Program-made: the position numbers and the translations under genes
From: a virus
Lineage: Duplodnaviria; Heunggongvirae; Uroviricota; Caudoviricetes
Direction: 5' to 3' (one strand)
IMG/VR virus record: IMGVR_UViG_3300045744_000007
Location: 64,001 to 97,278 of that record
DNA length: 33,278 nucleotides
Shown here: positions 2,576 through 25,100 of the stretch, one piece after another
Numbering within the stretch: position 1 is the stretch's first letter
Layout: every line of letters begins with the position of its first letter
The notes under the pieces: model-generated
The model's input: the letters and a program-made list of their open reading frames with translations, nothing else
The model's database searches: none
Told to the model about the DNA's origin: nothing

Positions 2576-4780
2576 GTGTCGAGACGTTGGAGGCCAGCCT
2601 TGAGCGACTTGGTGGAGCTGGCTACAGACCAGGTCGATCGAGTGGACCCCAAGGCGACCGACGTCGTCACCCCCAAGAAGCCGACTGATCTCGGGGTCGA
2701 GTACGGGGTCAGTGAGGTTCTCCCCTTCACGACGCCGTACAAGGACGGGCATTCGGTCGAGGTTCTGCGTGAGCAGGGCGAGGACTATGGCCCGAGTGTT
2801 CGGCAGCTTGCCGCCATGCGGCGCACCGATGGGCAGGCACGCGCGCTCTACCGGTTGGTGACGCTGCCGATCCGGTCGGCGCTCAAGAACTCCTCGTTCG
2901 TCCCGGCAGAGGGGGGCGAAGCGGAAGCTGAGTTCATCGACCAGCTTTTCAACCTCCCGCCTGCGGGTGGAGGGATGACCACGCCGTTCCATCGGGTGAT
3001 GGCCGAGATCCTCGTTGCCGTCTTCGATGGGTTTGCCGCGTTCGAGCTGGTCTATTGGCAGCCGACGACTGGGCCGCTCAAGGGGAAGTACACGCTCAAG
3101 AAGATCTCGAAGCGGCCGAGCGAGACGATCACCTTCCTGGCTGACGCGCATGGAGGCTTCGCGGGGCTACGGCAGAGGACGTCCTACCAGGGCCGGACCA
3201 TTGACGTGGAGATCCCGGAAAACAAGGCGTTCTACTACACCTGCCAGGAAGAAGAGCGGAAGTTCTACGGGATCTCGATGTTCCAGAGCGCCTTCTACCA
3301 CTTCGACAAGAAGGTGAAGCTCTACTACATCGCGCACCTGGCAGCTCAGAGAGCGGCAGTCGGGACCCGGAAAGGTGTGATGCCGCTCAACGCTTCGGAC
3401 AAGGACAAGAAGAGCTTCGTCCGGGCGCTGGCCGAGCTGGGCCTGGCGCAGTACATTGCGCTGCCAGGCCCGGACTGGGACGTCGAGAACCTCAAAGAGG
3501 GTGGGACGTTCGACTTCCTGAGCTACATCAACCACCACAACTCGCAGATGTCCAAGTCTGTGCTGGCTGGGTTCTTCGATGAGAACCAGGGTGGGGGCAA
3601 GTCCGACACGAGCATGGTGAACTTCGGAGAGCAGTCCGATGCCATGTTCCTGCTCATGCTCACGTCGATCATGGACGAGATCGCATCGAGCATCAACAAC
3701 TACTTGATCCCTCGGTTCATCGACTGGAACTTCGGTTCGGGGCTGTACCCCACGTTCAAGTGGGGGACGTTCACGGACGAGCAGAAGGGCGCGATCCGGG
3801 AGACCTTCGACAAGCTGGCCGTCGCAGGGCAGAGCCTCACCGCTACCCCCGACTTCGTCTTCGCCCTGGAGAAGCACATGGCGGAGGAGCTGGGGTTGGA
3901 GCTGGACTACGACCAGCTTCAGAAGGAGTTCGACCAGAAGAAGGCCATGCAGCAAGAGGCTGCCGACGTGCAGCACGAGGAGCTGCTCACCTACGGCTCG
4001 CAGGGGCAGAACCCCAACCAGCCTGGGCAGGGACCTGGCGGTGTAGGCGGCCGAGGTGGAGGCCCTGGGGGCGGTGGCAAGCCTCCCGCTCCGCCGAACA
4101 CCCCGCCGGGAGTGGCGCTGTCCTGGCCGCGTACCGACGCCGAGGACCGTCTCCTCGCCCTGGCAGGGATGCTTCTGGAGGGGGCCGACGAGGAGATCGC
4201 CCTGCATGGGGTGCACGGGAAGTCCGGCTACGCCCTGCTGCACAGCCCGAACAAGAGGATCCGAGAGGCCGCAGAGCGAGAGTTCCAAGCCGCGAAGCAG
4301 CGGGGAGCCTCGGACGAGAAGGCACAGGCGAAGATCACTGTGTCCGGGGCCAGGATCGCCTCGCACGAGAAGGCCGGGGGAACGCACACCCTCGTCTCGG
4401 AGGACGGGACCGAGCTGCCGATCCGGTCAGGAGCAGGGGATCACGTCTCCTCGGTGGACGAGCCGGGGGGTGGAGACGGGACGAGTGAGCCGGAGAGGAC
4501 CGTGTCCTACCTTCGGGAGACGTGGTCGAGTACCTCCTCGCCCGGCTACACACTGCGGCGGTTCCTGGACAACACCTACGACGTGGTGAGCCCGGAGGGG
4601 AAGGTCTCGAACCGGAACGAGGACTTCGACTCCGACGCCTGGACGGAAGCTGGCTGGCACCTGAACCCGGGCTCGAGTACGCGAGCCTCTGATTTGGCTG
4701 AGGATGTGGAGATCTTCGATGACGCAGAACCGGAAGACGGACCAGGAGCCTCAAAGTCAAAGCCAGCCCGGCGACCCTGA
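2576..4780 (+). CDS. Portal protein (Mu gp29/DUF935-like) with Gly/Pro linker and C-terminal extension
   Basis: Follows terL; GGGGAGG SD. Segments FDGFAAFELVYW and FYGISMFQSAFYHFDKKVKLY are typical of DUF935 portals; a Mu-type protease and MuF are in the same module. Confidence 0.85.
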   Translation: MSRRWRPALSDLVELATDQVDRVDPKATDVVTPKKPTDLGVEYGVSEVLPFTTPYKDGHSVEVLREQGEDYGPSVRQLAAMRRTDGQARALYRLVTLPIRSALKNSSFVPAEGGEAEAEFIDQLFNLPPAGGGMTTPFHRVMAEILVAVFDGFAAFELVYWQPTTGPLKGKYTLKKISKRPSETITFLADAHGGFAGLRQRTSYQGRTIDVEIPENKAFYYTCQEEERKFYGISMFQSAFYHFDKKVKLYYIAHLAAQRAAVGTRKGVMPLNASDKDKKSFVRALAELGLAQYIALPGPDWDVENLKEGGTFDFLSYINHHNSQMSKSVLAGFFDENQGGGKSDTSMVNFGEQSDAMFLLMLTSIMDEIASSINNYLIPRFIDWNFGSGLYPTFKWGTFTDEQKGAIRETFDKLAVAGQSLTATPDFVFALEKHMAEELGLELDYDQLQKEFDQKKAMQQEAADVQHEELLTYGSQGQNPNQPGQGPGGVGGRGGGPGGGGKPPAPPNTPPGVALSWPRTDAEDRLLALAGMLLEGADEEIALHGVHGKSGYALLHSPNKRIREAAEREFQAAKQRGASDEKAQAKITVSGARIASHEKAGGTHTLVSEDGTELPIRSGAGDHVSSVDEPGGGDGTSEPERTVSYLRETWSSTSSPGYTLRRFLDNTYDVVSPEGKVSNRNEDFDSDAWTEAGWHLNPGSSTRASDLAEDVEIFDDAEPEDGPGASKSKPARRP

Positions 4781-4870: not shown

Positions 4871-5830
4871 ATGACCACTCAGTTCGCTGCGACACTTGAC
4901 GCCAAGGAGACGTCGAGTGTCGCCCTGAGGAAGATCGAGGATCTGAGTCGGGAGGGCATCCGGCGCGGGTTTGCAGTGCTGAGTGGGAAGTTCACGGGGA
5001 TGCTGGCGAGCGTTACTGATCCCGATCTTGAAGAGGCCCTGGCCCGCTTCACGAAGATGATCGAGTCCAGTGCGGGGAACGCCAGACGATCTATCCAGTC
5101 GGCGCATGTCTCTGCGGGTGCTCTGGGGAGCGTCGCCGCGAGTGCTGACCTGGCCCGGCTCGGGGTGTCCGCGCCCAGGGTCCCGGCCCCTGACACCGCC
5201 TACCTCAACTCGGTGCTGTCCGACCTGAACCGGAACGTCGGGGAGATGCTCGGCAACGTCAGGGAGGCCGTGGGCGCGATCTGGAACGCCCCTCCGCCCC
5301 CGGAGTACCAGATGGACCGGGCCAGTGCGGAGGCCGGGAGACTTCAGAGCGTCGAGAGGGAAGTTGCGCGCCTGCTCTCCAACCTGATCAACCGCTCGGA
5401 GCTGGGGGCATCGGCAGTCGCGCATCGTGCTTTCACTGACGCGCAGATGGGCGTCTTCAAGGCCGCTCAGGAGTCCAACCCGGGCCTGTCGTTGCTCAAG
5501 ACGTGGGTGGCCGATCTGAACGCGGAGAAGCCGCCCTGTGCCCTCTGCCAGTCCCTGCATGGGACCTGGGTGGAGCTGGGGGAGGAGTTCCCGCATGGGA
5601 ACGCTGAGGTCTATGGGGGCGACCTTCAGGGTCCGCCGCGTCATCCGAACTGTCGGTGCCGGGTCGTGCCGCACCTGGTGACCCTGGACGAGCCGGAGCC
5701 ATCAGTGCCCCGGTTGCCGGAGGAGCACCGTGCGATCACCGCTGCTGAGATCCGGGCGATGTCTCCTTACCGTCTGCGGGCGATCGTGGCTGCCCTGCTG
5801 GCGCTGATCTCCAAGCTCGGACGTCGATGA
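4871..5830 (+). CDS. MuF / SPP1 gp7-like head morphogenesis (minor head) protein
   Basis: KTW...CALCQSLHG...GPPRHPNCRC signature; directly after the portal. Confidence 0.88.
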   Translation: MTTQFAATLDAKETSSVALRKIEDLSREGIRRGFAVLSGKFTGMLASVTDPDLEEALARFTKMIESSAGNARRSIQSAHVSAGALGSVAASADLARLGVSAPRVPAPDTAYLNSVLSDLNRNVGEMLGNVREAVGAIWNAPPPPEYQMDRASAEAGRLQSVEREVARLLSNLINRSELGASAVAHRAFTDAQMGVFKAAQESNPGLSLLKTWVADLNAEKPPCALCQSLHGTWVELGEEFPHGNAEVYGGDLQGPPRHPNCRCRVVPHLVTLDEPEPSVPRLPEEHRAITAAEIRAMSPYRLRAIVAALLALISKLGRR

Positions 5831-6036
5831 CGACCTTCCGGCCCAAGACCAGGCTTCAAGCGGCAAACCTCCTGCTCACGGCCCTGAACTACGCCTCTGG
5901 GACCTTCGAGGACTTCTCGATTTCGCCCCTCACGGTGGACAAGGTCATGGAGGTCGGCCTCACTGTGACGCCTGTCTCAGAAGATCTGTCTCGAATGTTG
6001 AGACAGGTAGTTGACGACGGTGAACTAGCGCGATAG
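5827..6036 (+). CDS. Hypothetical protein (69 aa)
   Basis: ATGA overlap with the MuF stop; fills the gap before the giant ORF. Confidence 0.6.
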   Translation: MTTFRPKTRLQAANLLLTALNYASGTFEDFSISPLTVDKVMEVGLTVTPVSEDLSRMLRQVVDDGELAR

Positions 6037-6101
6037 GGTCGTTCTCAGTGCCAGACCGAAGAAAGATCTGACCTGTGCGACCTTGAGGAGGGCTCACCGC
6101 T

Positions 6102-9100
6102 ATGCCGCCGTCTTGGAGCGATGAGCCGCTCGAGAACTGGGTGGAGATCCAGACGCCCCAGGAGGATGTGAGCCTCAAGGCTTACTCGAAGAAGTATTTC
6201 GAGTCTCCCGAGAATAAGTGGGCCAAGGCCGAGTTCAAGATCATCAACTGGGCTGAGATCAAGGAGACTGTCAAGGAGTACCCGTCTTATAAGAACTTCG
6301 AGGAGTCGTACCTCACGACTTACCTGGAGAACTCCAAGGGTGGGAAAACGGGAAGCCTCGACAAGGTCGTGGGTCTGGCGTCCGCGCCGGGCGGGGGAAT
6401 CCCCGGGATCACGGACTCCTACTGGGCACACCGGAACGGGAAGCTGGTCAAGGTCTCGAAGTACAAGACGCCGAACCCGGCCGACCCCAACGCTGGCACT
6501 CCGAAGCTGAACACCGGTTCGGCCACCACGCACGTTGCTGCCGACGTCCCCTCTGACGCGACCCCGGTCGGTTCCGGGGGCAAGCACGTCGGCTACATCA
6601 AGTCGTCCGGGACGTCGGGGAAGGTCCACGCCTGGAACTACAAGGGCCAGGAGCTTGTCGGGGAGTTCGACAAGGCGGAAGCCAAGACGCTGCTGGCAAC
6701 CATCTTCAAGTCCCAGCAGACGTACAAGAACAAGAAGGCTCCCGAGCACCCTCCGGTCAAGTACGTGGAGAAGATGGCTGCGCAGGCGGCCAAGGAGGCT
6801 TCTCCGGTCGAGGCCCTGTTCCCGCCCGTGGGTTCTCAGGTCACGGAGATGGCGACGCTCAAGTCGCTACCGATCGGCTCGGTGGTGGAGCACCACTTCA
6901 AGGGCTCCACGAACACCTGGAAGAAGATCGACGCCGACATCTGGGAGTCGGACGGTTTCAAGATCAAGTCTGTCGATCTCAAGGAGTCGATGGACGCGGG
7001 CGAGCTGTCGCTCAAGACGATCGGGACCAAGTCTCTGATCCCGGATGAGCCGAAGAAGGTCGACGCTCCGAAGGCTCCCTCCGTCTCCAAGCCCGAGCCC
7101 AAGAAGGAGACGCCGAAGGCTGAGGCCCCCAAGGTCGAGGCTCCGGACAAGAAGGCTGAGTCCGCCCCGGCACCGGAGAAGAAGGCTGAGCCTGCTCCCG
7201 CTCCCGAGAAGAAGGCCGCTCCCGCCCCGGAGTTCAAGAAGGAGACGACGAAGACCGAAGCTCCAGCCTCCCCTGCGGGGAAGGTGAAGATCGGGGGCAA
7301 GGAGTTCTCTGCTGACGATGTCAAGGACGCTATCTCCATCCTGGAGAAGGCCAAGGGCATCATGGTCAAGCAGCCCTTGCAGAAGTACAACAACCCGGTC
7401 TGGGACGTCGACTACAAGGCGCTCGCCAAGGAGCACGTCCCGGGGACGAACGAGACGAAGCCCGCCTTCATCAAGTACCTGAAGGACCAGCTTGGGAAGA
7501 CCGGCGACGCCAAGAAGGTGGACGCCCCGGCTCCGGAGCCCAAGGCTGAGCCGACCAAGGTCGAGAAGATCGCAGAGACGGCGGCCAAGCCGAAGGTCGA
7601 GGCTCCGAAGCCGGTCGACGTCGCGTCCTTCAAGCCGGGTCAGAAGCTCACTCCGGAGGAGGTCAAAGCTCTTCCGATCGGCGCGAAGATTGCTTTTAAC
7701 TACGCGCCGAATCACATCTACGAAAAGAATGCTGCCGACGAGTGGCAGACTCCTACTGGTGTTCTGCTTGGGAACACCGTTTTTACGGCTGTGCCGAGTG
7801 CTGTTAGCCTGCACTCGCTGCCGGGTGGCGAGAAGGTGGAAGAGCCCAAGGTCGAGGCTCCGAAGCCTGCAAAGCCCGGCCCGGTCACCTCCCTGACGGA
7901 CTTCATGAGCCTGCCGGTGGGGACGAAGGTGACTTACACCTCCGCAATCATTAGCGCTGGCCCCAAGGAGTTCACGAAGACCGAGAATGGCTGGACGAGC
8001 CCGAGCCACTCCTCGCCGCTGCCCGATTCCGCTTTTGCCGGGGCAATCAAGCTCGGAAAGGTTGCGGTCACGGGGAAGGTCGAGGCGACCGAGGTCAAGA
8101 AGGTTGAGCCGACTCCTGCTCCCGAGAAGGTGGGCCCCAAGCCTGGCGACAAGCTGACGAAGGAGACGTTCGCTTCCCTCCCTGCTGGCGCTGTCGTCGC
8201 GAACAAGTATTCGCAGTACAAGAAAGGCCCCAATGGGGGATGGTCGAACGCTGCCAGTGCGGTTCCGCAGTTCAAGATTTCTGACTCGGCGTTCGACAAC
8301 ACCATTGCCAATGGCAACCTGACGCTCCACAGCCTTCCGAGCGACGCCCCGGCTCCGAAGGCGTCCCCCTCTGTGGGTCAAGCGCTCACGAAGGACGACC
8401 TTGACGCGCTTCCGAATGGTTCGGTGGTCAAGGACCCTGAGGGCATTAGTTGGACGAAGAACAATAAGTCCGAGTGGAATCTGTCTAAGTACGTCAACCA
8501 GATCTCGGGTCTTCCTTCGTCCAGTATCGCTGACCACAAGCTGACGCTCGTTTCGGCCGCCCCTAAGCCCGGTGACAAGCTGACGCAGGAGACGCCGAAG
8601 GCCGAGACTTCCAAGGTCGAGGCTCCGAAGCCTGCCGCCCCGAGTGCCAACGCTGTGAACTGGGCTCCGGTGATCGAGGGGAAGGACTTCCACAACCTCG
8701 TCAAGAGCTACTACTCCACCGCGACCGAGCTGCGGGACACCATCAAGGAGATGGCCGCTCACCTCGGGTTGGCTGGGGTCATCGGCCAGCACATGACCGG
8801 GACGTCCGATCGGAAGGCGTGGATCGAGGCCGTCTACAAGGGTGACCTCGTCAAGGCGTACCAGATCGAGGAGGCTGCGGCTAAGGCGAAGGGGAAGGTC
8901 CACGCCAAGGCCAAGAAGCACCCGGGCGCTCCGGGGAACTCGGGGAACATCGAGGTTGCTCCGGCCGTCGCGGGGGAGCTGAAGGCTGGTTCTCCGCTCT
9001 CCGGTCCGGGCGTCCCGGAGAACCTGAAGGCCGCTCTCCTCGACACCTACCCGTCGAACGAGACGGTCGACGCTGTTCTTCTCGCTGCGGGGATGAAGAA

Positions 9101-12100
9101 CTCGCAGGGTCTTTCGGCGAGCAACAAGCGAGCATGGGCTCGGTGGTTCGCTGAGGGTTACCAGATCGGTGTTGACCGGCTCTCGCTGTACGCGAAGAAG
9201 AACGTCGAGGATGGGAACTTCTACTCCGAGCCGATCGTGCCGCCCAAGCCGATCGTGGGGGCTGGCGAGTCGGTCGAGATCGACCCGGAGTGGAAGAGCT
9301 TCAACATCGGCCTGAACCGGGCCACGAACCTCACCCCGGCGCAGCTCAACGCCTACCTGGCGCAGATCTTCACCCCGGACACCCGGAAGGCTGTCACCAC
9401 CAAGCTCTCGGTGGACCAGAAGCAGGCCATCGTCCAGCTTCACTACCTCTCGACGCTGCCCAAGCTCAAGGGCGCGCACAAGGACCCGGAAGTTGCGGCG
9501 TCGGAGTTCAACGCGATCAAGAAGCAGATCGCGGAGCAGGCTCCGGGCTATAGCAACGCCGGGTGGAACTCGGAGAACTGGCAGTTCGACCTCCCCGCTT
9601 TCCCGGCCAAGAACAGTACGTTCGAGATCGAGCCCGCCTCGGCCGGAGTGGCGAAGCTGGGGGGAACGCAGTCCAAGTTCTTCGTCCTGGACGACGAGGG
9701 CAACCGGTGGCTGTTCAAGCCGTTCGCTGAGTCGTGGCGCTCCAAGGTGTCGCACGGTGCGCATATGGCGGGGAAGTTCTTCGGCTTCACGCACGCCACT
9801 TCGCAGACCGTCACGATCGATGGGAAGTTCGGCCACCTTCAGTCGGTGCTCGATGCCTCGGACATCGGCCCCGCGTCTTCCCTCACTGACTCGCAGCTTG
9901 CCGACGTCGCGCGTGAGCACCTGTTCGACTGGCTGACGGGGAACGACGACGCGCACAAGGCGAACTTCATGGTCCTTCCTTCGGGGAAGGTCGTCGGGAT
10001 CGACAAGGACCGCGCGTGGGGTCCGGGGTTCGGGAAGTACGCCCTCAAGCCGGGGGCGCTGAGCCACCAGAGCCACGTCTACTACGAGGATCTGTACGCC
10101 GACGTGATGTCGGGGAAGATCTCGGCTGGGCAGGCTCAGGCGCTCTACAAGGCCGTGATGAGCCGGGCCAAGATGATGCAGGCTCGGCCCGACGATGGCT
10201 ACCGGGCGATCCTGGAGGAGGCTTTCTCCGGGGATGGCTACCCGCTGAGTGGCGCGTCTCGGTCGGCACTGATCGAGAAGGCCCTGGCTCGGAAGAACTC
10301 GCTGGTCGATGACTTCGAGGAGCTGTGGTCGGGGATCCTGGCGAAGGCCGGGGTCGAGAAGCCAGAACCCTCCACTCAGATCGCTCCGCACATCCACACC
10401 GGGGCGACGGGTGAGCTGTTCGAGGACGTCGAGAAGGCTGGGGCGGTCGGGCACTCGACCTTCTACCACTCGACGGACCTGGAGGACTCGCACTTCATCC
10501 TTCAGTCGGTCAAGACGCCGCAGGGTAAGCTCCTGGTCGGTCAGGGGCAGCTCCTGGAGTCGGGCGACGCCAAGCTCTCGAAGTTTCTCGCCTCGAAGTT
10601 CACCGGGGTCACGCTCGGTGCGTCTGCTCCCAAGGAGCCGGTGGCCTACACGAAGTTCACGCAGGCGGCCGAGAACCTGGCTCAGCAGGTCTTGCTCGGG
10701 GTCAAGACGATCAGCCACCACGCCAAGGACGGGCAGTACAACACGTCCAGCGTGGGGGCGATGGAGCTGGCCGAGAAGACCATCAAGGCTGACCTCGACC
10801 TGCTCAAGACCGACGAACCGACGTTCATCTCGACGCACAACCTCAAGAACGAGCCGGAACTCGTGGGCGAGTACCGGGCGATGTACGAGAACTACCTCTC
10901 CTGGATCGAGAAGGCCAAGAGCGCCAAGGCCAACGGGGTCATGGTCGAGGGGATGTTCTCGGCCTACAAGGTCAAGACGACGCCCAAGAAGCCGGAAGCC
11001 GAGACGGTCACGCTCAAGAACGACATCACCGTTCAGAAGCGAGAGACGAAGGTTCTGGGTGGGGAGCACCAGAAGGGTGAGCTGGTCGCCAACAAGCACG
11101 ACGATGACGACCTGAGTGGGGGGCAGAGTGGCTACGAGTACCTGGTCACGCTGCCGTCCGGGACGCGCTTCACCTATCAGCCCTTCGATGACACCTTCGG
11201 GGTCTACACGTCTCAGAAGGGCCGCTTCCGGTTCACCTCGACCGACGCCTCGAACACCGGGGTCGTGACCGAGATCGAAGACCTCCTCCGGCAGGCCGGT
11301 GTTCACCTGGAGGAGGCAGACGAGTCCACCCTCGAGGCGCACTACTGGCGGCACCTGTACTCGGTGATGAAGAACCGGCAGTCCTCGGACAAGACCAAGA
11401 AGGTCGAGGCCGCCTTCAAGACTCACAAGCCCGACTCGGCCGACTCGGTCGGGGAGGAAGTGACCCGGTGGCGCGCGGTCTGGTCGGAGTACGAAGGCTC
11501 TGAGAAGGTGGATTCCTTCGTCGGTCGTCAGGGCTACCTCCCGAAGCTGCGCTCCTACGCGTTCGACTCGGAGGGCAAGCACGGCCGCCCGGTGTGGGAG
11601 CGGTTCGACGCGGACGCGAAGGCGCTCTACGAGAAGGGCAACCCGCTCATTCACGGGCTCGGCTCGAATGGTGGGGCCGCTGCCGCCGCCTACAGTGGTG
11701 GTCTGCTTTCCACCGATGAGCGGCCCCGTGTCCTGGGTAAGTGGATCACGGGGATGTCGTCCTCGCAGGACCAGTCGTATGGCTCGGCCAACTTCGTCTT
11801 TACCCGCCAGAACCACCAGGGCGCGCAGTACATGATGCTGGACCCGATGGCTGGCGCGGCCACGACCACCTACGCCTACACCGACGACAACTACGGAAAC
11901 ATCAAGAGCCGGAAGGGCTACGCGCCGTTCGACTTCAGTGAGCAGACTGCGTTCACCGGTGGAAGCAATGAGATGATGATTAAGTACGGCATCTCGTTCG
12001 TGGATCACCTGCTGCTCCTGGTCATGGACGAACCTGAGCGGTCGCAGGTCATCGAGTATTACAAGAACAAGGGCGTCTACAAGATCCGTGGTGTGGACGT

Positions 12101-12191
12101 CGAGGACGTTTTCGTGACGCACAAGGACGCCGCCAAGGCTGGGCAGGCTGTTCGGGACAGGATGAAGAGTGGCTGGTACCTCAATCACTGA
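6102..12191 (+). CDS. 2029-aa multidomain (polyvalent-type) protein: KEAP-rich repeat region, HipA/PI3K-like kinase domain, C-terminal ART-like domain
   Basis: GAGGAGG SD and strong GC3 bias. Kinase motifs WLFKP (K at 9717), GNDDAHKAN (9939-9965) and GIDKD (D at 10002). ART-like motifs LIHG (11646), GLLST, NFVFTR and SNEMMIK (E at 11970). The ORF is secure; the domain calls are motif-based. Confidence 0.8.
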   Translation: MPPSWSDEPLENWVEIQTPQEDVSLKAYSKKYFESPENKWAKAEFKIINWAEIKETVKEYPSYKNFEESYLTTYLENSKGGKTGSLDKVVGLASAPGGGIPGITDSYWAHRNGKLVKVSKYKTPNPADPNAGTPKLNTGSATTHVAADVPSDATPVGSGGKHVGYIKSSGTSGKVHAWNYKGQELVGEFDKAEAKTLLATIFKSQQTYKNKKAPEHPPVKYVEKMAAQAAKEASPVEALFPPVGSQVTEMATLKSLPIGSVVEHHFKGSTNTWKKIDADIWESDGFKIKSVDLKESMDAGELSLKTIGTKSLIPDEPKKVDAPKAPSVSKPEPKKETPKAEAPKVEAPDKKAESAPAPEKKAEPAPAPEKKAAPAPEFKKETTKTEAPASPAGKVKIGGKEFSADDVKDAISILEKAKGIMVKQPLQKYNNPVWDVDYKALAKEHVPGTNETKPAFIKYLKDQLGKTGDAKKVDAPAPEPKAEPTKVEKIAETAAKPKVEAPKPVDVASFKPGQKLTPEEVKALPIGAKIAFNYAPNHIYEKNAADEWQTPTGVLLGNTVFTAVPSAVSLHSLPGGEKVEEPKVEAPKPAKPGPVTSLTDFMSLPVGTKVTYTSAIISAGPKEFTKTENGWTSPSHSSPLPDSAFAGAIKLGKVAVTGKVEATEVKKVEPTPAPEKVGPKPGDKLTKETFASLPAGAVVANKYSQYKKGPNGGWSNAASAVPQFKISDSAFDNTIANGNLTLHSLPSDAPAPKASPSVGQALTKDDLDALPNGSVVKDPEGISWTKNNKSEWNLSKYVNQISGLPSSSIADHKLTLVSAAPKPGDKLTQETPKAETSKVEAPKPAAPSANAVNWAPVIEGKDFHNLVKSYYSTATELRDTIKEMAAHLGLAGVIGQHMTGTSDRKAWIEAVYKGDLVKAYQIEEAAAKAKGKVHAKAKKHPGAPGNSGNIEVAPAVAGELKAGSPLSGPGVPENLKAALLDTYPSNETVDAVLLAAGMKNSQGLSASNKRAWARWFAEGYQIGVDRLSLYAKKNVEDGNFYSEPIVPPKPIVGAGESVEIDPEWKSFNIGLNRATNLTPAQLNAYLAQIFTPDTRKAVTTKLSVDQKQAIVQLHYLSTLPKLKGAHKDPEVAASEFNAIKKQIAEQAPGYSNAGWNSENWQFDLPAFPAKNSTFEIEPASAGVAKLGGTQSKFFVLDDEGNRWLFKPFAESWRSKVSHGAHMAGKFFGFTHATSQTVTIDGKFGHLQSVLDASDIGPASSLTDSQLADVAREHLFDWLTGNDDAHKANFMVLPSGKVVGIDKDRAWGPGFGKYALKPGALSHQSHVYYEDLYADVMSGKISAGQAQALYKAVMSRAKMMQARPDDGYRAILEEAFSGDGYPLSGASRSALIEKALARKNSLVDDFEELWSGILAKAGVEKPEPSTQIAPHIHTGATGELFEDVEKAGAVGHSTFYHSTDLEDSHFILQSVKTPQGKLLVGQGQLLESGDAKLSKFLASKFTGVTLGASAPKEPVAYTKFTQAAENLAQQVLLGVKTISHHAKDGQYNTSSVGAMELAEKTIKADLDLLKTDEPTFISTHNLKNEPELVGEYRAMYENYLSWIEKAKSAKANGVMVEGMFSAYKVKTTPKKPEAETVTLKNDITVQKRETKVLGGEHQKGELVANKHDDDDLSGGQSGYEYLVTLPSGTRFTYQPFDDTFGVYTSQKGRFRFTSTDASNTGVVTEIEDLLRQAGVHLEEADESTLEAHYWRHLYSVMKNRQSSDKTKKVEAAFKTHKPDSADSVGEEVTRWRAVWSEYEGSEKVDSFVGRQGYLPKLRSYAFDSEGKHGRPVWERFDADAKALYEKGNPLIHGLGSNGGAAAAAYSGGLLSTDERPRVLGKWITGMSSSQDQSYGSANFVFTRQNHQGAQYMMLDPMAGAATTTYAYTDDNYGNIKSRKGYAPFDFSEQTAFTGGSNEMMIKYGISFVDHLLLLVMDEPERSQVIEYYKNKGVYKIRGVDVEDVFVTHKDAAKAGQAVRDRMKSGWYLNH
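6822..8650 (+). repeat. Five divergent ~65-aa modules (G..LT...L.xLP.G..V...w.K....W) separated by Lys/Glu/Ala/Pro linkers
   Basis: Modules start near 6822, 7629, 7872, 8139 and 8370; the linker DNA AAGGTCGAGGCTCCG recurs near 7128, 7593, 7848 and 8613. Confidence 0.75.
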
Positions 12192-12528
12192 GTGGCAGGA
12201 GCGCTTCGATTCCGATTTCCCCAACGGCCTAGTGGTCTACTACGGGAATCCGGAGATCGGCGTTCCGGTGTCGGCCCTGCACGTCGTGGGGCTCAAGAGT
12301 GGTCGGCCCGTGGTGGCATTTGCAGACCTCGGGGGCCAGAAGAGCTGGTCTGACGTCCTGCTGACCTACAACGAGACGCAGAGCGAGCCTGTGCGTCTCG
12401 TGGAGGCTTCCGGGAGAGACCTGGGGACCCTCACCTTCAGTGGGAACCTCAAGGGCGAGCTGGCGAAGCGCGCCGGGGAGACGCGGGACTCCGAGAGGAA
12501 GTACCTGACGGGTCTGGGAGGGGCGTGA
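12169..12528 (+). CDS. Hypothetical protein (119 aa) overlapping the giant gene's 3' end
   Basis: High-GC3 ORF; start codon uncertain (GTG 12169). Confidence 0.65.
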   Translation: MAGTSITEWQERFDSDFPNGLVVYYGNPEIGVPVSALHVVGLKSGRPVVAFADLGGQKSWSDVLLTYNETQSEPVRLVEASGRDLGTLTFSGNLKGELAKRAGETRDSERKYLTGLGGA

Positions 12529-12794
12529 TGGCGAAAGCGCTCCTTCACCAGGATCCGCAGACCCACAAGCTCCTCGGGGTGTGGACGGACAAGAACAAGG
12601 CGTACTACAAGGGAGCCTCTCCTCTAGCGCGTCTGACCGGTCGTAGAGCGATGGACGACTGGATCGGGGGCTCATGGGATGAGTGGGTCGAGAGGCTGGT
12701 CGGGCGCAATCCCGGGGAGATCTCCTGGGAAAGCGTGGAAGTGGAGAAGAGCGAGACTCCCAAGGCCGTCTTTGAGAGGCTGACCGGCTCTTAG
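12525..12794 (+). CDS. Hypothetical protein (~88 aa)
   Basis: GGAGGGG SD; GTGATG overlaps the upstream stop. Confidence 0.7.
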   Translation: MMAKALLHQDPQTHKLLGVWTDKNKAYYKGASPLARLTGRRAMDDWIGGSWDEWVERLVGRNPGEISWESVEVEKSETPKAVFERLTGS

Positions 12795-12833
12795 ACCGGG
12801 AGGTTGCTCAGACCTATAACCGATGGTCTGAGC

Positions 12834-13898
12834 GTGTCTGAGTTCGGGAGCGTTGTAGTTCCGAGTCGCGAGAGCGACTTCGTTGAGCTGGCACGCACGC
12901 CTTCGGGACGGATGTTCCGGAAGCACATTCTGAACAAGGGTCCGCTGATCCACCCCAAGACTGGGGCCAGGATCGATATCGATGACGAGTTCGTGCGGGC
13001 TCTCAAGACGAACTTCGAGAACCAGGTCTGCGACATCGTGCAGGTGCCGAAGGCCGGTCCGAACAACGAGCACACCGAGGATCCCGATCGCAATATCGGG
13101 GAGGTCATCGGGATCGAAGAGCGGGCAGGGAAGGTCTATGCCCTGATCGATGCTCGTTCCGACTCTGACGCCGACAAGCTGGGGAAGACTCTCCTCGGTG
13201 CGTCGGCGCAGATGCATCTCAACTACACGGACACCCGGACGGGGAAGCGGGTGGGTCCGACCCTGCTTCACGTCGCGGTGACGAATCGGCCGTACGTCCT
13301 CGGTCTGGAGGACTACGAAGAGCTGGTCGCTGCCTCAGCCGAAGGCTCGGATGAGGTTGTTGTGCTCACTGAAGCCTCGGCAGAGCAGGAAGAGGAGATC
13401 CACCCCATGACCCTGGATGAGCTGAAGGCTCTTCTGAAGGCTGAGCACCAGATCGATCTGGACGCTCTTCAGGCGCAGTCGGCAGAGGTGGCGAAGCTGA
13501 CTTCCTCGCTGGCAGAGGCAGGCGTGCTCAAGCTGAGCAACGGTGAGGTGCTCAACCCCGACGACGTCGTGGGTGCCTTTCAGGAGCTTGCCAACGACAA
13601 CGTCTCGCTCTCCTCGCGGGTGGAGAAGCTGGAGGCGGAGGGCCACGTCGCTGCGGTGAAGGCTCTGGTGGCAGAGGGCCGCATCCTGCCTGCGCAGGAG
13701 TCCGCGATGGTGGAGCTGCGGAAGGCGAACCTCGACCTGTTCGCGAAGCTGGTGCCCGAGAAGCCGCTGGTTCCGCTCAGCAACGAGCTGGGGACCGAGG
13801 GGCTGGAGAAGCCGGGCGAGTCGCAGGAGCTGGACATCGACGCCGAGATCGCGCGCCTGACCGCGACCGGTGGCCCTGCTTCGAACTACATCCGCTGA
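12834..13898 (+). CDS. Capsid maturation protease (Mu gpI-like) with C-terminal scaffolding region
   Basis: PTLLHVAVTNRPYVLGL motif of the Mu-like protease; acidic helical C-terminal half; upstream of decoration and capsid genes. Start taken at GTG 12834; TTG 12804 is also in frame. Confidence 0.85.
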   Translation: MSEFGSVVVPSRESDFVELARTPSGRMFRKHILNKGPLIHPKTGARIDIDDEFVRALKTNFENQVCDIVQVPKAGPNNEHTEDPDRNIGEVIGIEERAGKVYALIDARSDSDADKLGKTLLGASAQMHLNYTDTRTGKRVGPTLLHVAVTNRPYVLGLEDYEELVAASAEGSDEVVVLTEASAEQEEEIHPMTLDELKALLKAEHQIDLDALQAQSAEVAKLTSSLAEAGVLKLSNGEVLNPDDVVGAFQELANDNVSLSSRVEKLEAEGHVAAVKALVAEGRILPAQESAMVELRKANLDLFAKLVPEKPLVPLSNELGTEGLEKPGESQELDIDAEIARLTATGGPASNYIR

Positions 13899-22152: not shown

Positions 22153-25100
22153 ATGGCTATTGCCGTAGACGCCTCCTCCGCAGCGGGTGTGTCTCAGACC
22201 AACAGTGCCACTCTGACGCTAGCGACAGGCTCTTTTACTCCGCCTTCCGGCTCGGTGATTCTGGCGTCGTGGCAGGGCAACTCGGCAACGGCTAACCCCA
22301 CCGCGCCCACGATCGCGAACTCGGGTGGCTTGACGTTCACCGCGGTCAACATCCGGACCAGCGCGGACACTGGTGGTGCCCATGGGCAGGCCGCCATGTG
22401 GTACGCGATCGTCTCCACGTCGCCCGGTGCCATGACGGTGACCGTGACGAACAACGCCGCCTCCGGATCTCGGCAGGCGAGGCTCAGGGTCCTGGTCCTC
22501 ACGGGAGCAGACACCACGACGCCCATCGCGAGCAGTGGTGAGGGCACGGACTCCGGTGGGGCGCTCGACACCCTGTCTTACACCTCCACGGTGGCGAACT
22601 CGGTTGGGTTCGCGTCGGTGTCGGACTGGGACGTCTCGTCCACGACCTTCACGGCAGCGTCCGGGACGACCATCGATGACTCGCAGTCGGTCGGGGCCTC
22701 GATCAACTGCGCGACGCTCAAGCAGACGACGCCGACCACCTCTGGCTCCACGATCTCCCTTGGTCTCACGTCGCCCACCTCGACCCAGTGGAACTACGTC
22801 TGGGCAGAGATCCGCCCCGCTTCGACGTCGGGTACTTCGGCCAGCGCAGCCAACACGGCAGCGAGCGTCACGAGTAGCTCGGCTCAGTCGTCGGTCAAGC
22901 CTTCGGCCTCGGCCACGAGTGTGGCTCCGGCTGCCCAGGGAGCCGTTGGCTCGGTCAAGGGCGTGGCGTCGCTCGCTGGGACCGGTGCCAGCGCTCAGAG
23001 CGCGCTTGGGGGCGTCGGTCCGGCCGCTGGGGGCACGGGGACCAGTGCCGGGGCACAAGGCGCTGTCAATGGCGTCCGGGGAGCCGCCTCGCTCGGGAGC
23101 GCGACGGCTAGCGCTCCCAGTGCCGCGGCTGGTGCCGGGAGCTTGGCCGGGGGTCCTGGGGTCAGTGGGTCCGCGCTGGGGACCTCGAACCAGGTTCAGG
23201 GAACGGCATCCTCAAGCGGGACGACGGCCAGTACGCCTTCTCCTGGACTCTCGGGGTCTACCAGTGCCGGTGCGCCGGGGGTCGGCGCTGGTGTGCAGTC
23301 GGTCGCCACACCGATCAACGTTCGCGCTGGTATGGCGGGAGTCGCGCCGTCCGCAGTTAATGGGACAGCAACGAACGGTGTCGCTGCTGCGGCTGGGCTG
23401 GCTGGGGTCGCAATAGGGGTTCCGGCTTCCGCTCCTGGAACTGCCTCCGGGATCGGAGCGAGTGGTGTCGGGGCGAGCGCTCAGGTTCCGGGTGCCGGAG
23501 CCGGAGCTAGTTCCGGTGTCAGTGGTGTGGGTGTTAGTGCGCCGACTCCGAGCCCGAGTGCCGGGGCCAGTGCACAGACTCCGAGTTCTGGAGCTGGCGC
23601 GCAGACTCCTGGCTCGGGAGTCACGGCGAGTTCTGGAGCGAGTGGTGTGGGGGCGGGGGCACAGCTCCTCAGCTCCGGGGTCAAGCCGAGTTCTGGGCTG
23701 GGTGGTGTCGGGGCAGACGCTCAGCTTCCTAGCTCGGGGATCGGGTCGAGTGGTGGAGCGAGTGGGGCCAGCGCTGGGGCGCTGGGTGTGGGGAGTGGAT
23801 TCAGCTTCCCCGTTGGAACCGGTGGTGTCGGGGCCAGCGCGCCGGGCGCGGGAGTGGGATCCGGCCTCCCTGCCGGAACAGGTGGTGTCGGGGCAGGCGC
23901 GCTGGGAGCTGGGACAGGATCCAGCTCTCTCGCTGGGACGAGTGGTGTCGGGGTAGGAGCAGGCGCTTCTACCTCCGGGGTTGGGGCCAGCGGTGGAGCA
24001 GGAGGAGTTGGGGCGGGGGCTCAGACTCCGAGTTCTGGGGTTGGTGCCAGTGTCGGGACGAGTGGTGCCGGGGCGAGTTCCCCGAACGGAGATGCGGAGA
24101 CCCCTGTGGCTGTAGATACCTTCTGGAATGGGTCTCCTCCGGCCTGGACCGGCTCGGACGACGACGCTCCGTTGGCAGTCGGTATGGCCTTCTCGGTCCT
24201 CGTGAGTGGGCAGTGCACTGGGGTGCGCTTCCACACCAACACGACCGAGTCCGGGACGGTGGTGGCTCAGCTCCACACCAACACCGGGACCTTGCTGGCG
24301 TCCAAGAATGGGCCTACGAACCCGACTGCGGGCTCCTACGACATCACGTTCGACACCCCGCAGACTCTCAACACGAGCACGATCTACGTCGTCTCGATCT
24401 GGCACCCCGAGGGCCGCTACAGCTACACCACGAACCCGTCGCAGTTCCAAGCCGACTTCACCTCGCCCGGGGGGACGCTCTTCACCTCGGACCAGGGTGG
24501 GTACGGCCCGGGGCGGTTCGTCTACGGTGCGAGCGCGGGTGCTCTCCCGAATGGGAACTCGCAGACCTGGTACGGGGCAGAGCCGATCTTCAGCACTGTC
24601 TCGGCAGGAACGAACGCGAGCGCTGCCAACGCTCCGGTGACGGGGCAGAGCAACGGTGTCGGGAGCAACGTCACCGCCGGAGGCGTGGGCTCGACCGGTG
24701 CCGCCGCATCGGCAAGCAACGCGACGATCAGCTCGGCCAACAATGCAACGGCCTCTGCGGGGCTGGCGAGCACGGCGGTGTTGGGCATCACGGCCGCCGT
24801 CAATTCCAGCTCCGGGACGACGTACGAAACGCTGTTCGGGGGTTCGCCTCCGGCCTTCACTGGCTCGGACGACGATCCGAGCCCGCTCACTCTGGGTCTG
24901 GCGTTCTCGGTGCTGTCGAGTGGCTCCCTGGCTGGGGTGGAAGTCTCGACAGCAACGACCGAGACCGGGACCTGGGTGGCGTTGCTCTACGACAACGCCG
25001 GGAACCAGCTCGCCACGAAGAACGGGCCGACCAACCCGGGGGCAGGTACCTACCGGGTGTTCTTCGATACGCCGGTCACGGTGAACACGGGGACGATCTA

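Follow-up and report, generated by a model that had tools for sequence, protein, structure and literature searches.

Enzymatic effectors that are packaged in phage heads as polyvalent proteins, or fused to MuF head proteins, have already been described (PMC5512222, PMC5576092, PMC9503650). Polyvalent proteins (Iyer, Burroughs, Anand, de Souza, Aravind 2017, PMC5512222) are very large, multidomain products encoded among virion genes, which carry domains that modify proteins or nucleic acids, such as kinases and ADP-ribosyltransferases (ARTs), and are predicted to travel in the virion and enter the host along with the DNA. The polyvalent kinases form a truncated clade of the Ser/Thr/Tyr type, from which the C-terminal subdomain has been lost, while the ARTs are of the Tox-ART-HYD2 type. 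The same work cites phage T4 Alt, a member of the R-S-E Alt/VIP2 clade, as the earlier example of a head-packaged ART that is injected along with the DNA (PMC5512222). The MuF polymorphic toxins of Jamet et al. (2017; PMC5576092) have their effector linked to MuF, beside the portal gene and ahead of small ORFs; the word "kinase" occurs 0 times in the main text of that report.

The DNA analyzed here, a window of 33,278 nt (positions 64,001-97,278 of IMGVR_UViG_3300045744_000007), belongs to an uncultured Caudoviricetes phage whose 97-kb genome record is only ~72% complete, so that missing partner genes carry little weight. Coordinates refer to the window, and all features described lie on the + strand. 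Positions 4871-12794 comprise a MuF gene, a 69-aa ORF, a giant ORF of 2029 residues and two coupled small ORFs, all of which are present at the coordinates given below. The block is bounded by a Mu-type portal gene (2576..4780; PF06074, E 2.3e-32; phrog_113), whose product shares 44-56% identity with the portals of related loci, and by a Mu-like prohead protease gene (12804..13898; PF10123, E 4e-8; phrog_328), for which the corresponding values are 41-52%. The order TerL, Mu portal, MuF, small ORF, giant, small ORFs, Mu-like protease, HDPD decoration protein and major capsid protein E is identical in the related loci L002, L003, L007, L008/L009 and L010. In L006, L011 and L012 the slot is unchanged, but the giant is fused to MuF, and the gene order is kept in every related locus examined. 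The phages that encode this family are large, have a Mu-type portal and carry the gene in their head-morphogenesis block.

The giant ORF (P0001; 6102..12191) is an open frame preceded by a GAGGAGG Shine-Dalgarno motif 9 nt upstream of its ATG, which substantiates the 6-kb ORF that the preliminary description placed between MuF and the capsid protease. With 980 representative homologues at E ≤ 1e-3, of which 236 reach E ≤ 1e-30, the ORF is far beyond chance. Family members range from 613 to 3965 aa among the 150 matches listed, are found only in metagenomes, and always occupy the head-module slot wherever the context was readable. The preliminary description knew of no characterized head protein combining a kinase and an ART in this layout; with a family of this size the layout is not rare, and the enzyme pair is widespread.

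The protein is built in two parts, a variable N-terminus and a conserved core of ~1160 residues (aa ~865-2029). The N-terminal part is fast-evolving and consists of small β-rich modules and linkers. Residues 1-240 (6102..6821) form a lineage-specific region that found no BLAST match among ~158 family members and lacks the N-terminal motif common to ~74 relatives. The variable repeat region that follows (aa 240-830; 6819..8591) contains five ~70-aa "LPxG...W" modules (aa 240-312, 508-582, 590-665, 676-752 and 756-830) separated by Pro/Ala/Lys/Glu-rich linkers, together with a module of ~95 residues (aa 386-480). The five modules share 19-35% pairwise identity and are real repeats, as initially noted; an HMM built from them recovered, as expected, those five and no other part of the giant. 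Residues 390-480 of the ~95-aa module are common to ~40 relatives, often in multiple copies. The conserved core starts with a helical pre-kinase region (aa 865-1170; 8694..9611; AF2 pLDDT 91.5), in which the alignment reveals an invariant W907 and an invariant HPG motif (H940-P941-G942). Between the two enzyme-like domains lies a conserved middle module (aa 1440-1810; 10419..11531; AF2 pLDDT 90.6, pTM 0.79), comprising a β domain, a three-helix bundle and a helical domain, which matched generic helical bundles (Z ~8) and, weakly, triphosphate-tunnel folds (Z 5.5-5.8), and nothing else.

Residues 1170-1440 (9609..10421) are confidently predicted to adopt a PI3/4K-HipA-CtkA-type kinase fold in which the catalytic residues are conserved, in agreement with the kinase-like domain originally proposed. 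The model (pLDDT 91.5) gave 278 Foldseek matches in the PDB at E ≤ 1e-3, all of them kinases among the 50 matches listed, and a profile search against the PDB returned kinases only. Structural comparison using VIA identified PI4KIIalpha (Z 15.2), CtkA (Z 13.3), MavQ (Z 12.5), Fam20 (Z 12.1) and HipA (Z 11.6), and sub-threshold matches to HipA_C were observed in P0001 and six relatives. K1206, D1276, D1283 and D1301 are invariant (46/46 sequences) and N1288 is retained in 41/46. The α-C Glu, present in 38/46 relatives, is replaced here by Ser1217, and this copy of the kinase may therefore be weakened or regulated differently. This PI4K/HipA/CtkA-like domain, with its full C-lobe, contrasts with the truncated kinases of polyvalent proteins (PMC5512222); moreover, the kinase and ART-like block of the giant is a core conserved as a fixed unit and is not shuffled.

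This kinase-like domain recurs (26% identity, E 6e-14, with its catalytic motifs retained) between a head domain and an ART in two comparable proteins, the metagenomic MuF-ART P0025 and prophiFVLQ01-1 gp56 (BK061310.1) of M. abscessus, annotated as a [quoted passage not shown]. Both are encoded just behind a portal gene, as is the region of the giant. They differ from the giant in length (1188-1436 aa), in being fused to the head domain, in having neither a repeat region nor a middle module, and in their ART, which is of the classical R-S-E exoenzyme type (PF03496) and not DarT-like.

The C-terminal domain (aa 1810-2029; 11529..12191; model pLDDT 90.6) is predicted to adopt an ART-type fold. 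Over aa ~1835-2015 the only family matched structurally, and the only consistent neighbor, was DarT, from three species: E. coli DarT1 (8BAQ; Z 7.2 over 162 aligned residues), Thermus DarT (7OMY; Z 5.9) and M. tuberculosis DarT (7YK3; Z 5.8), values of 5.8-7.2 that fall in the middling range of the tool. The ESM-Atlas cluster of DarT (PF14487) was matched with a TM of 0.47 over 170 residues, and language-model leads included OspC, DarT/PARP and DUF3626. Seven polar residues, R1834, D1836, R1874, S1886, D1890, D1929 and E1957, are invariant (46/46), and E1957 opens a late strand, as does the invariant Glu of DarT. The domain departs from DarT in that its sequence does not match PF14487 and its strand-1 His is not conserved, and no DarG-like macrodomain "eraser" was found in the 97-kb record (~72% complete). 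Pfam and PDB profile searches matched no other ART family by sequence. Given that no such match exists and that the family does not conserve the strand-1 His/Arg position of ARTs, ART activity of the domain is uncertain. The terminal ART-like domain proposed at first is retained as a fold with DarT as its sole structural neighbor. The domain was never found in a standalone form, but always as the C-terminus of a giant head-module protein. T4 Alt, by comparison, is a small, single enzyme, unrelated to the giant in sequence and context. DarT is an ADP-ribosyltransferase that modifies DNA bases, and DarTG is a toxin-antitoxin system. The earlier suggestion that two different post-translational modifications act on the host may be the wrong chemistry for a domain whose closest fold modifies DNA.

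The gene immediately after the portal (4871..5830) encodes a 319-residue MuF-like head morphogenesis protein that carries no effector extension. The match to PF04233 (E 1.7e-5, 26 bits) is under the gathering cut-off of 29.6, and 13 PHROG head-morphogenesis/portal families were also matched. MuF homologues are encoded at the corresponding position in L002, L003, L007, L008 and L010. At this locus MuF and the giant are not covalently linked, whereas relatives of the giant include true MuF fusions, like the MuF toxins (PMC5576092). In L006 the MuF domain constitutes the N-terminus of the giant, a single 2826-aa ORF uniting MuF and the giant core and adjoining homologous portal and protease genes. 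A jackhmmer search with the MuF of this locus detected an N-terminal MuF domain, in frame, in at least 8 of ~158 family members, and Pfam recognized PF04233 in the L006 ORF and in 6/7 database relatives tested (one above the curated cut-off). Phylogenetically, 6/7 fused forms in the tree group in one well-supported clade, and the giant of this locus belongs to a neighboring well-supported clade of split forms. An ESM-Atlas cluster annotated "phage head morphogenesis protein" also matches the C-terminal module of the giant (TM 0.42, 336 residues aligned). The notion of a cargo split from MuF is supported by the in-frame fusions, and by the occurrence of the kinase domain inside MuF/minor-capsid and ART fusion proteins.

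The gene layout, the fold predictions, the residue conservation, the position between MuF and the protease and the MuF-fused sister forms underpin the explanation that we consider best and, on balance, likely: the giant would be a polyvalent, MuF-associated head effector, representing a large unnamed family known only from metagenomes, that is delivered to modify the host. It is probably an enzyme cargo packed in the capsid and released into the host, packaging and injection being proposed from genomic context. In the best supported step of this scheme, the giant would be made late with the head genes and enter the procapsid via MuF and the portal, through a link that is covalent in the fused relatives and would be non-covalent here, possibly aided by the small flanking proteins. 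Next in support, it would exit the capsid together with the DNA; last, the kinase and ART-like domains would modify host targets early in infection. Because DarT is the nearest match to the ART-like fold, this domain may target nucleic acid and not protein.

The same head-module setting could also accommodate a mainly structural, assembly or ejection component (an internal core, a DNA-ejection conduit or a portal-associated plug) whose enzyme-like domains are pseudo-enzymes or scaffolds. The fixed slot in every locus read, which marks a lineage-wide core gene and not an accessory one, agrees with such a role, as do the conserved, non-polymorphic C-terminal core, the kinase lacking its α-C Glu, the unconserved strand-1 His, and the long linker-and-module N-terminus, which resembles extended structural proteins. 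However, the invariance of K1206, D1283 and D1301, and of R1874, S1886, D1890 and E1957, in 46/46 divergent sequences is the pattern of working active sites. In addition, some relatives carry a further enzyme domain, NUDIX, as expected for polyvalent effectors, and other head proteins pair the same kinase with a bona fide PF03496 ART. We regard a mainly structural role as unlikely.

It is rather improbable that the giant is a late enzyme that stays undelivered and acts in the producing cell, where it might, for example, modify DNA or head proteins of the phage itself while packaging proceeds. Such an activity would be compatible with the DNA-base-modifying chemistry of DarT, the closest fold, with a gene that adjoins the packaging machinery and a MuF neighbor from a portal-associated head protein family, and with the missing macrodomain, although absent partners mean little in a record of this completeness. 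Against it, the covalent MuF fusions of relatives argue for incorporation into heads, and a modular protein of 2000-4000 residues is not what one would expect of an enzyme that modifies DNA in the cytoplasm; we know of no precedent. One form that this could take is a DarT-like enzyme that marks phage DNA against host nucleases.

Two coupled small ORFs follow the giant, as originally reported. The first, of 119 aa (P4-like family; 12169..12528), overlaps the end of the giant by 23 nt and matched no family. Its homologues are encoded immediately after the giant in L002 (1.8e-12), L007 (2e-10) and L006 (5.6e-4), with a weak match in L008, and the gene is missing from L003 and L010. The second, of 88/89 aa (P5-like family; 12525..12794), likelier starts at the ATG at 12528, which follows GGGAGGGG and overlaps the stop of the 119-aa ORF. 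P5-like homologues occur in L002, L006, L008 and L010 and in 30 clusters of a large database, and in both extra contexts read (L011 and L012) the gene lies between the giant gene and the protease; it is missing from L003 and L007. The downstream small genes are conserved alongside the giant in many loci and missing from some. Their tight coupling, a pattern described for MuF toxins by Jamet et al. (PMC5576092), and their tracking of the giant in many loci would suit immunity proteins against the kinase and ART of a split MuF polymorphic toxin system for inter-bacterial competition, but such a system is very unlikely, because the polarity is inverted (C-terminal enzymes conserved across the family, N-terminus variable, the reverse of a polymorphic toxin), each small gene is missing in some loci that keep both enzyme domains, and reports of MuF toxins are confined to temperate phages, while the 97-kb record shows no sign of lysogeny (no integrase or resolvase) and a pattern scan of GTDB representative genomes found no prophage copy. 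Most likely, the two downstream proteins are assembly or packaging helpers, or inhibitors that quiet the enzymes in the producing cell. The 69-aa ORF between MuF and the giant (P3-like family; 5827..6036), which begins in an ATGA overlap with the MuF stop and matched nothing in Pfam or PHROG, has weak but consistent homologues of 64-75 aa in the same slot of L008 (1.2e-5) and L010 (1.9e-4).

The window forms the 33-kb end section of an IMG/VR virus record of 97 kb, which has a GC content of ~63%, lacks terminal repeats and is 72% complete by CheckV estimate. The head module is encoded on the plus strand and opens with the large terminase (691-2562) and a Mu-type portal (2576-4780; PF06074, 2e-32), followed by a MuF-like protein (4871-5830) recognised through 13 PHROG head families and a PF04233 match of 1.7e-5, which is below the cut-off. 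An ATGA is common to the MuF stop and the start of a 69-aa ORF (5827-6036), after which a 2029-aa protein, hereafter the giant, is encoded at 6102-12191, with GAGGAGG positioned 9 nt upstream of its ATG. The end of the giant gene overlaps a 119-aa ORF (12169-12528) by 23 nt, and this leads into an 89-aa ORF (12525-12794) whose most likely start, ATG 12528, follows GGGAGGGG and overlaps the preceding stop. A Mu-like prohead protease (12804-13898), an HDPD decoration protein and an E-type major capsid protein come next. The genes are tightly coupled at the MuF, 69-aa, giant and small-ORF junctions, and on the evidence of these junctions and the ORF layout, the limits and make-up that a preliminary description had given for 4871-12794 are correct. 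The earliest possible start of the protease ORF, TTG 12804, abuts GGGAGG at 12798-12803 (window 12795-12830); alignments with protease homologues begin only at about residue 17, and the true start is probably further downstream.

A HMMER scan of 1.84 billion representatives revealed 980 proteins related to the giant at E <= 1e-3, of which 236 reach E <= 1e-30, with sizes of 613-3965 aa among the 150 matches listed. The region from about residue 865 to the end is alignable with all relatives at 28-41% identity, and some members of 1050-1300 aa consist of little beyond this conserved core. Source or taxon labels are metagenomic in the few cases recorded. No full-length relative was identified in 50,697 phage genomes, DNA megablast of 4871-12794 against the phage genome collection gave no match, and tblastn with the C-terminal 880 aa retrieved from phage genomes only two M. 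abscessus prophage proteins, in the kinase region alone. A locus scan returned nothing with a single protein and two viral loci with a tighter alignment, and a limited pattern scan of GTDB genomes detected no copies. Every locus with readable context (L002, L003, L006, L007, L008/L009, L010, L011 and L012) displays the order portal, MuF, giant, protease, HDPD and major capsid protein. At L008:8683-9912, two further ORFs, of 409 and 81 aa, separate the MuF/small-ORF pair from the giant, indicating that the slot tolerates extra genes.

The most important result on family context is the fusion of MuF to the giant in relatives. In the window the two are separate ORFs with the 69-aa ORF between them, and at the related locus L006 a single 2826-aa ORF presents a MuF domain first, then the kinase and ART-like core, flanked by homologues of the window portal (49% identity) and protease (45%). 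A jackhmmer search with the window MuF located an N-terminal MuF domain in eight of ~158 family members, and Pfam assigned PF04233 to six of the seven database relatives tested (one above the curated cut-off) as well as to the L006 ORF. In a maximum-likelihood tree of residues 1440-2029 that included seven fused forms, six of these constitute one clade (support 99/98) and the window protein belongs to an adjacent clade made up of split forms (97/99); lacking a root and with a weak fork between the two clades, the tree does not settle whether fusion or fission came first. What the window adds in particular is a clear-cut form split from MuF and accompanied by three small genes. This split form suggests that a covalent MuF link is not required for capsid loading, in which case virion cargo is not predictable from fusions alone. 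A homologous kinase domain is also found with a head-protein domain on one side and a classical PF03496 ART on the other in gp56 of the M. abscessus prophage prophiFVLQ01-1 and in P0025, a metagenomic MuF-ART protein. The annotation of gp56 (L001:4591-8157), [quoted passage not shown], omits its kinase-like domain at residues ~471-767, which is homologous to the window kinase and retains intact catalytic motifs.

Gene context and the MuF fusions of relatives point to probable packaging and delivery of the giant. MuF/gp7 proteins are located in the head interior at the portal, and effectors of the MuF-fused and polyvalent kinds have been proposed to exit with the DNA (PMC5576092, PMC5512222, PMC9503650). 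[quoted passage not shown]

The kinase-like domain of the preliminary description was borne out by structure prediction and Foldseek. An AlphaFold2 model of residues 865-1440, built on a 46-sequence alignment (mean pLDDT 91.5), matched 278 PDB chains at E <= 1e-3, and all of the 50 listed are kinases, with PI4KIIalpha, PI3Kgamma, ATM/Tel1, mTOR and CtkA among them. VIA-align scored the model highest against PI4KIIalpha (Z 15.2; 218 residues, rmsd 3.7), followed by CtkA (13.3), MavQ (12.5), actin-fragmin kinase (12.2), Fam20 (12.1) and HipA (11.6), such that Z-scores to HipA/HipT (10.7-11.6) are below those to PI4KIIalpha and CtkA. The family profile likewise retrieved only kinases from the PDB, as weak matches (Fam20, HipT, DNA-PKcs, PI4K). 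By its predicted fold, the domain is a PI3/4K-HipA-CtkA-like atypical kinase. The fold does not disclose its substrate, as lipid, protein and sugar kinases are all among the nearest structures. Membership of the HipA family was rejected, since matches to HipA_C (PF07804) score under the gathering cut-off of 30.5 bits, both in the giant (13.7 bits) and in six relatives (21-28 bits). HipA belongs to a toxin-antitoxin setting, whereas the giant kinase is internal to a head-module protein whose neighbours are MuF, the protease and small ORFs without family match, and no HipA-type toxin-antitoxin context with a HipB/HipS-type partner is present at the window locus. HipA-type features are conserved, comprising the beta-3 lysine (K1206), the catalytic D-x-x-x-x-N loop (D1283/N1288) and the Mg-binding aspartate (D1301); K1206, D1276, D1283 and D1301 are shared by all 46 sequences, and N1288 by 41 of them. 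The alpha-C column contains Glu in 38 of the 46, Ala in seven others and Ser solely in the window protein (S1217, window 9750-9752), and given Ser1217 the kinase of the window copy may be less active or differently regulated. With this substitution on one side and the invariant catalytic positions on the other, it is unlikely that the giant is mainly a structural or ejection component carrying degenerate enzymes.

The model of residues 1440-2029 (pLDDT 90.6, pTM 0.79) runs from a beta domain through a three-helix bundle and a helical domain to a terminal alpha/beta domain. Foldseek found no PDB match at E <= 0.001, the top rows being DnaK and TolC-type structures with very large rmsd, and no clear match in BFVD. 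VIA-align against 48,161 representative chains gave mostly generic helical bundles for the helical-bundle region; its sole match for the terminal domain was the NAD+ structure of E. coli DarT1 (8baq; Z 7.2, 162 of 208 residues aligned), spanning model residues 396-576, equivalent to giant residues 1835-2015. Further VIA matches were to Thermus DarT (7omy; Z 5.9, 158 residues) and M. tuberculosis DarT (7yk3; Z 5.8), and an ESM-Atlas shape search, independent of VIA-align, retrieved the PF14487 DarT cluster (TM 0.47 by target, 170 residues). The DarT link comes only from VIA-align, where the DarT Z-scores are moderate, and from ESM Atlas; language-model features gave low-scoring leads to OspC, DarT/PARP and DUF3626 clusters. 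In the Pfam scan, none of the 46 family members matched PF14487 at E <= 10 and none matched an ART family, a six-frame PF14487 search of the whole 97-kb record found no match, and PDB searches were empty both with a profile of the ART-like domain and with the single sequence of residues 1100-2029. A near-length search for a standalone ART-like domain returned only one 144-aa fragment. DarT family membership by sequence was therefore rejected, as PF14487 was matched by no sequence method. The terminal ART-like domain of the preliminary description stands as a probable DarT-like fold by VIA-align and ESM Atlas; it was assigned to no ART family by sequence and was not retrieved by Foldseek.

Conservation in the C-terminal domain is pronounced at R1834, D1836, R1874, S1886, D1890, D1929 and E1957, which are invariant in 46/46, while R1902, Y1924, N1956 and K1961 are near-invariant and E1957 opens a predicted strand. 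H1851 ("LIHG"), which by its position would serve as the strand-1 NAD+-binding residue, falls in a column that aligns poorly and shows no conservation. As no more than a lead, the stretches "GGLLS", "FVFTR" and "NEMMIK" resemble DarT motifs. The structural matches make an ART-type, DarT-like fold likely for the terminal domain, and NAD+-dependent transferase activity plausible. DarT enzymes modify DNA bases, and protein, the target assumed in the preliminary description, is therefore only one option for the ART. Such chemistry could also suit a non-delivered late enzyme working on phage DNA or proteins; given the MuF fusions of relatives, we regard this as distinctly unlikely. A search of the 97-kb record, which is ~72% complete, detected no Macro domain such as a DarG-type antitoxin would have. 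The beta domain of the middle module (residues ~1474-1737, window 10521-11312) aligned with triphosphate tunnel metalloenzymes (CYTH) at VIA Z 5.5-5.8, a reading that was not adopted because the scores are weak and the acidic-tunnel motif was not seen.

The three small ORFs of the window represent families that are real, conserved companions of the giant gene. P3-like proteins (64-75 aa, the family of the 69-aa ORF) are encoded between MuF and the giant in the window, L008, L010 and, weakly, L002. P4-like proteins (91-133 aa, the family of the 119-aa ORF) directly follow the giant in the window, L002, L006, L007 and, weakly, L008, and are absent from L003 and L010. P5-like proteins (87-104 aa, the family of the 89-aa ORF) precede the protease in the window, L002, L006, L008, L010, L011 and L012, are absent from L003 and L007, and number 30 clusters in the large database. 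Pfam, PHROGs and ESM Atlas gave no match for any of these families, ESM-Atlas feature searches with two of the small proteins gave no usable matches, and complex prediction for the ART-like domain with the 119-aa protein scored 0.00, a result without verdict that is uninformative in either direction. Since the companions are dispensable in some lineages that have both enzyme domains, a helper role in assembly or packaging accounts for them no less well than an obligatory immunity function. A competition system of the true toxin-immunity kind, which the coupling of small ORFs to the giant might recall and which their absence from some loci does not, is very improbable.

As regards known systems, the giant has the testable features of polyvalent proteins (Iyer et al. 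2017), with at least two effector-type domains in one polypeptide (predicted kinase and DarT-like ART folds in the 2029-aa ORF) and a gene placed among virion and DNA-delivery genes, in the MuF-protease slot, in the window and all related loci read. It contrasts with MuF polymorphic toxins (Jamet et al. 2017), in which MuF and toxin share one polypeptide, whereas the window giant is separate and only relatives are fused. Those toxins display a conserved N-terminus and a variable C-terminal toxin; the giant is reversed, with ~1160 C-terminal residues conserved and a variable N-terminus, and the strict label of polymorphic toxin was rejected for this reason. Those toxins are also followed by a small, neutralising immunity gene and occur in temperate phages and prophages. 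The coupled small ORFs of the giant are present in many loci and absent from some, and no integrase or resolvase was found in the 97 kb of the window record (~72% complete). The giant lacks two defining features of MuF polymorphic toxins, the shared polypeptide and the polymorphic C-terminus. No study of a kinase and DarT-like block was found in the literature searched. The principle of head-delivered effectors is already described there, and the value of the finding resides in the family and its chemistry rather than in the concept.

To our knowledge, very few proteins injected with phage DNA have been characterised, the usual examples being T4 Alt, the N4 virion RNA polymerase and SPP1 gp7. 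Here, one conserved block, an atypical kinase with a DarT-like ART fold, as predicted, occupies the same head-module slot across a family of roughly a thousand sequence clusters derived from uncultured phages. Should the enzymes prove active, they would provide a common, unstudied means by which phages reprogramme the host or disarm it within seconds of infection, and their targets could include nucleic acid besides protein. We tentatively raise a broader possibility, itself rather doubtful as a whole, that the block represents an unrecognised and very widespread class of phage-injected host-takeover enzymes, delivered from the capsid at infection by large, likely lytic phages. The two activities would be coupled, for instance with host DNA or RNA being ADP-ribosylated and the same or a cooperating target phosphorylated, and P4- and P5-like proteins would be dedicated packaging chaperones or inhibitors; on this view, a functional dependence linking kinase and ART would explain why the same kinase recurs beside another ART clade in head proteins of mycobacterial prophages.

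The N-terminal part of the giant is variable. Residues 1-240 matched none of the ~158 collected family members. Residues 240-830 contain five divergent ~70-aa modules (pairwise identity 19-35%) with the common pattern "(K)PG..LT...L..LP.G...W", and linkers rich in Pro, Ala, Lys and Glu throughout; a ~95-aa module at residues 386-480 is also found in ~40 relatives, often in multiple copies. A ~40-aa N-terminal motif with the consensus "...HVRHVRTPEGAKFYGLPIGSLIT..." is present in ~74 of ~157 family members, among them P0026, P0035 and P0032, and is absent from the window giant (region 6102-6821) and from every frame of the window; in relatives it could be a docking element. Some relatives display an added NUDIX domain (PF00293) in this variable part, namely the MuF-giant fused forms L011:53-9418 (3121 aa) and L012:1-9487 (3568 aa) and the relative P0010, which strengthens the polyvalent-effector picture. 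A second very large ORF, of 1485 aa, is located in the tail region of the window (22153-26610) and contains two DUF4082 stretches (PF13313, 1.3e-35).
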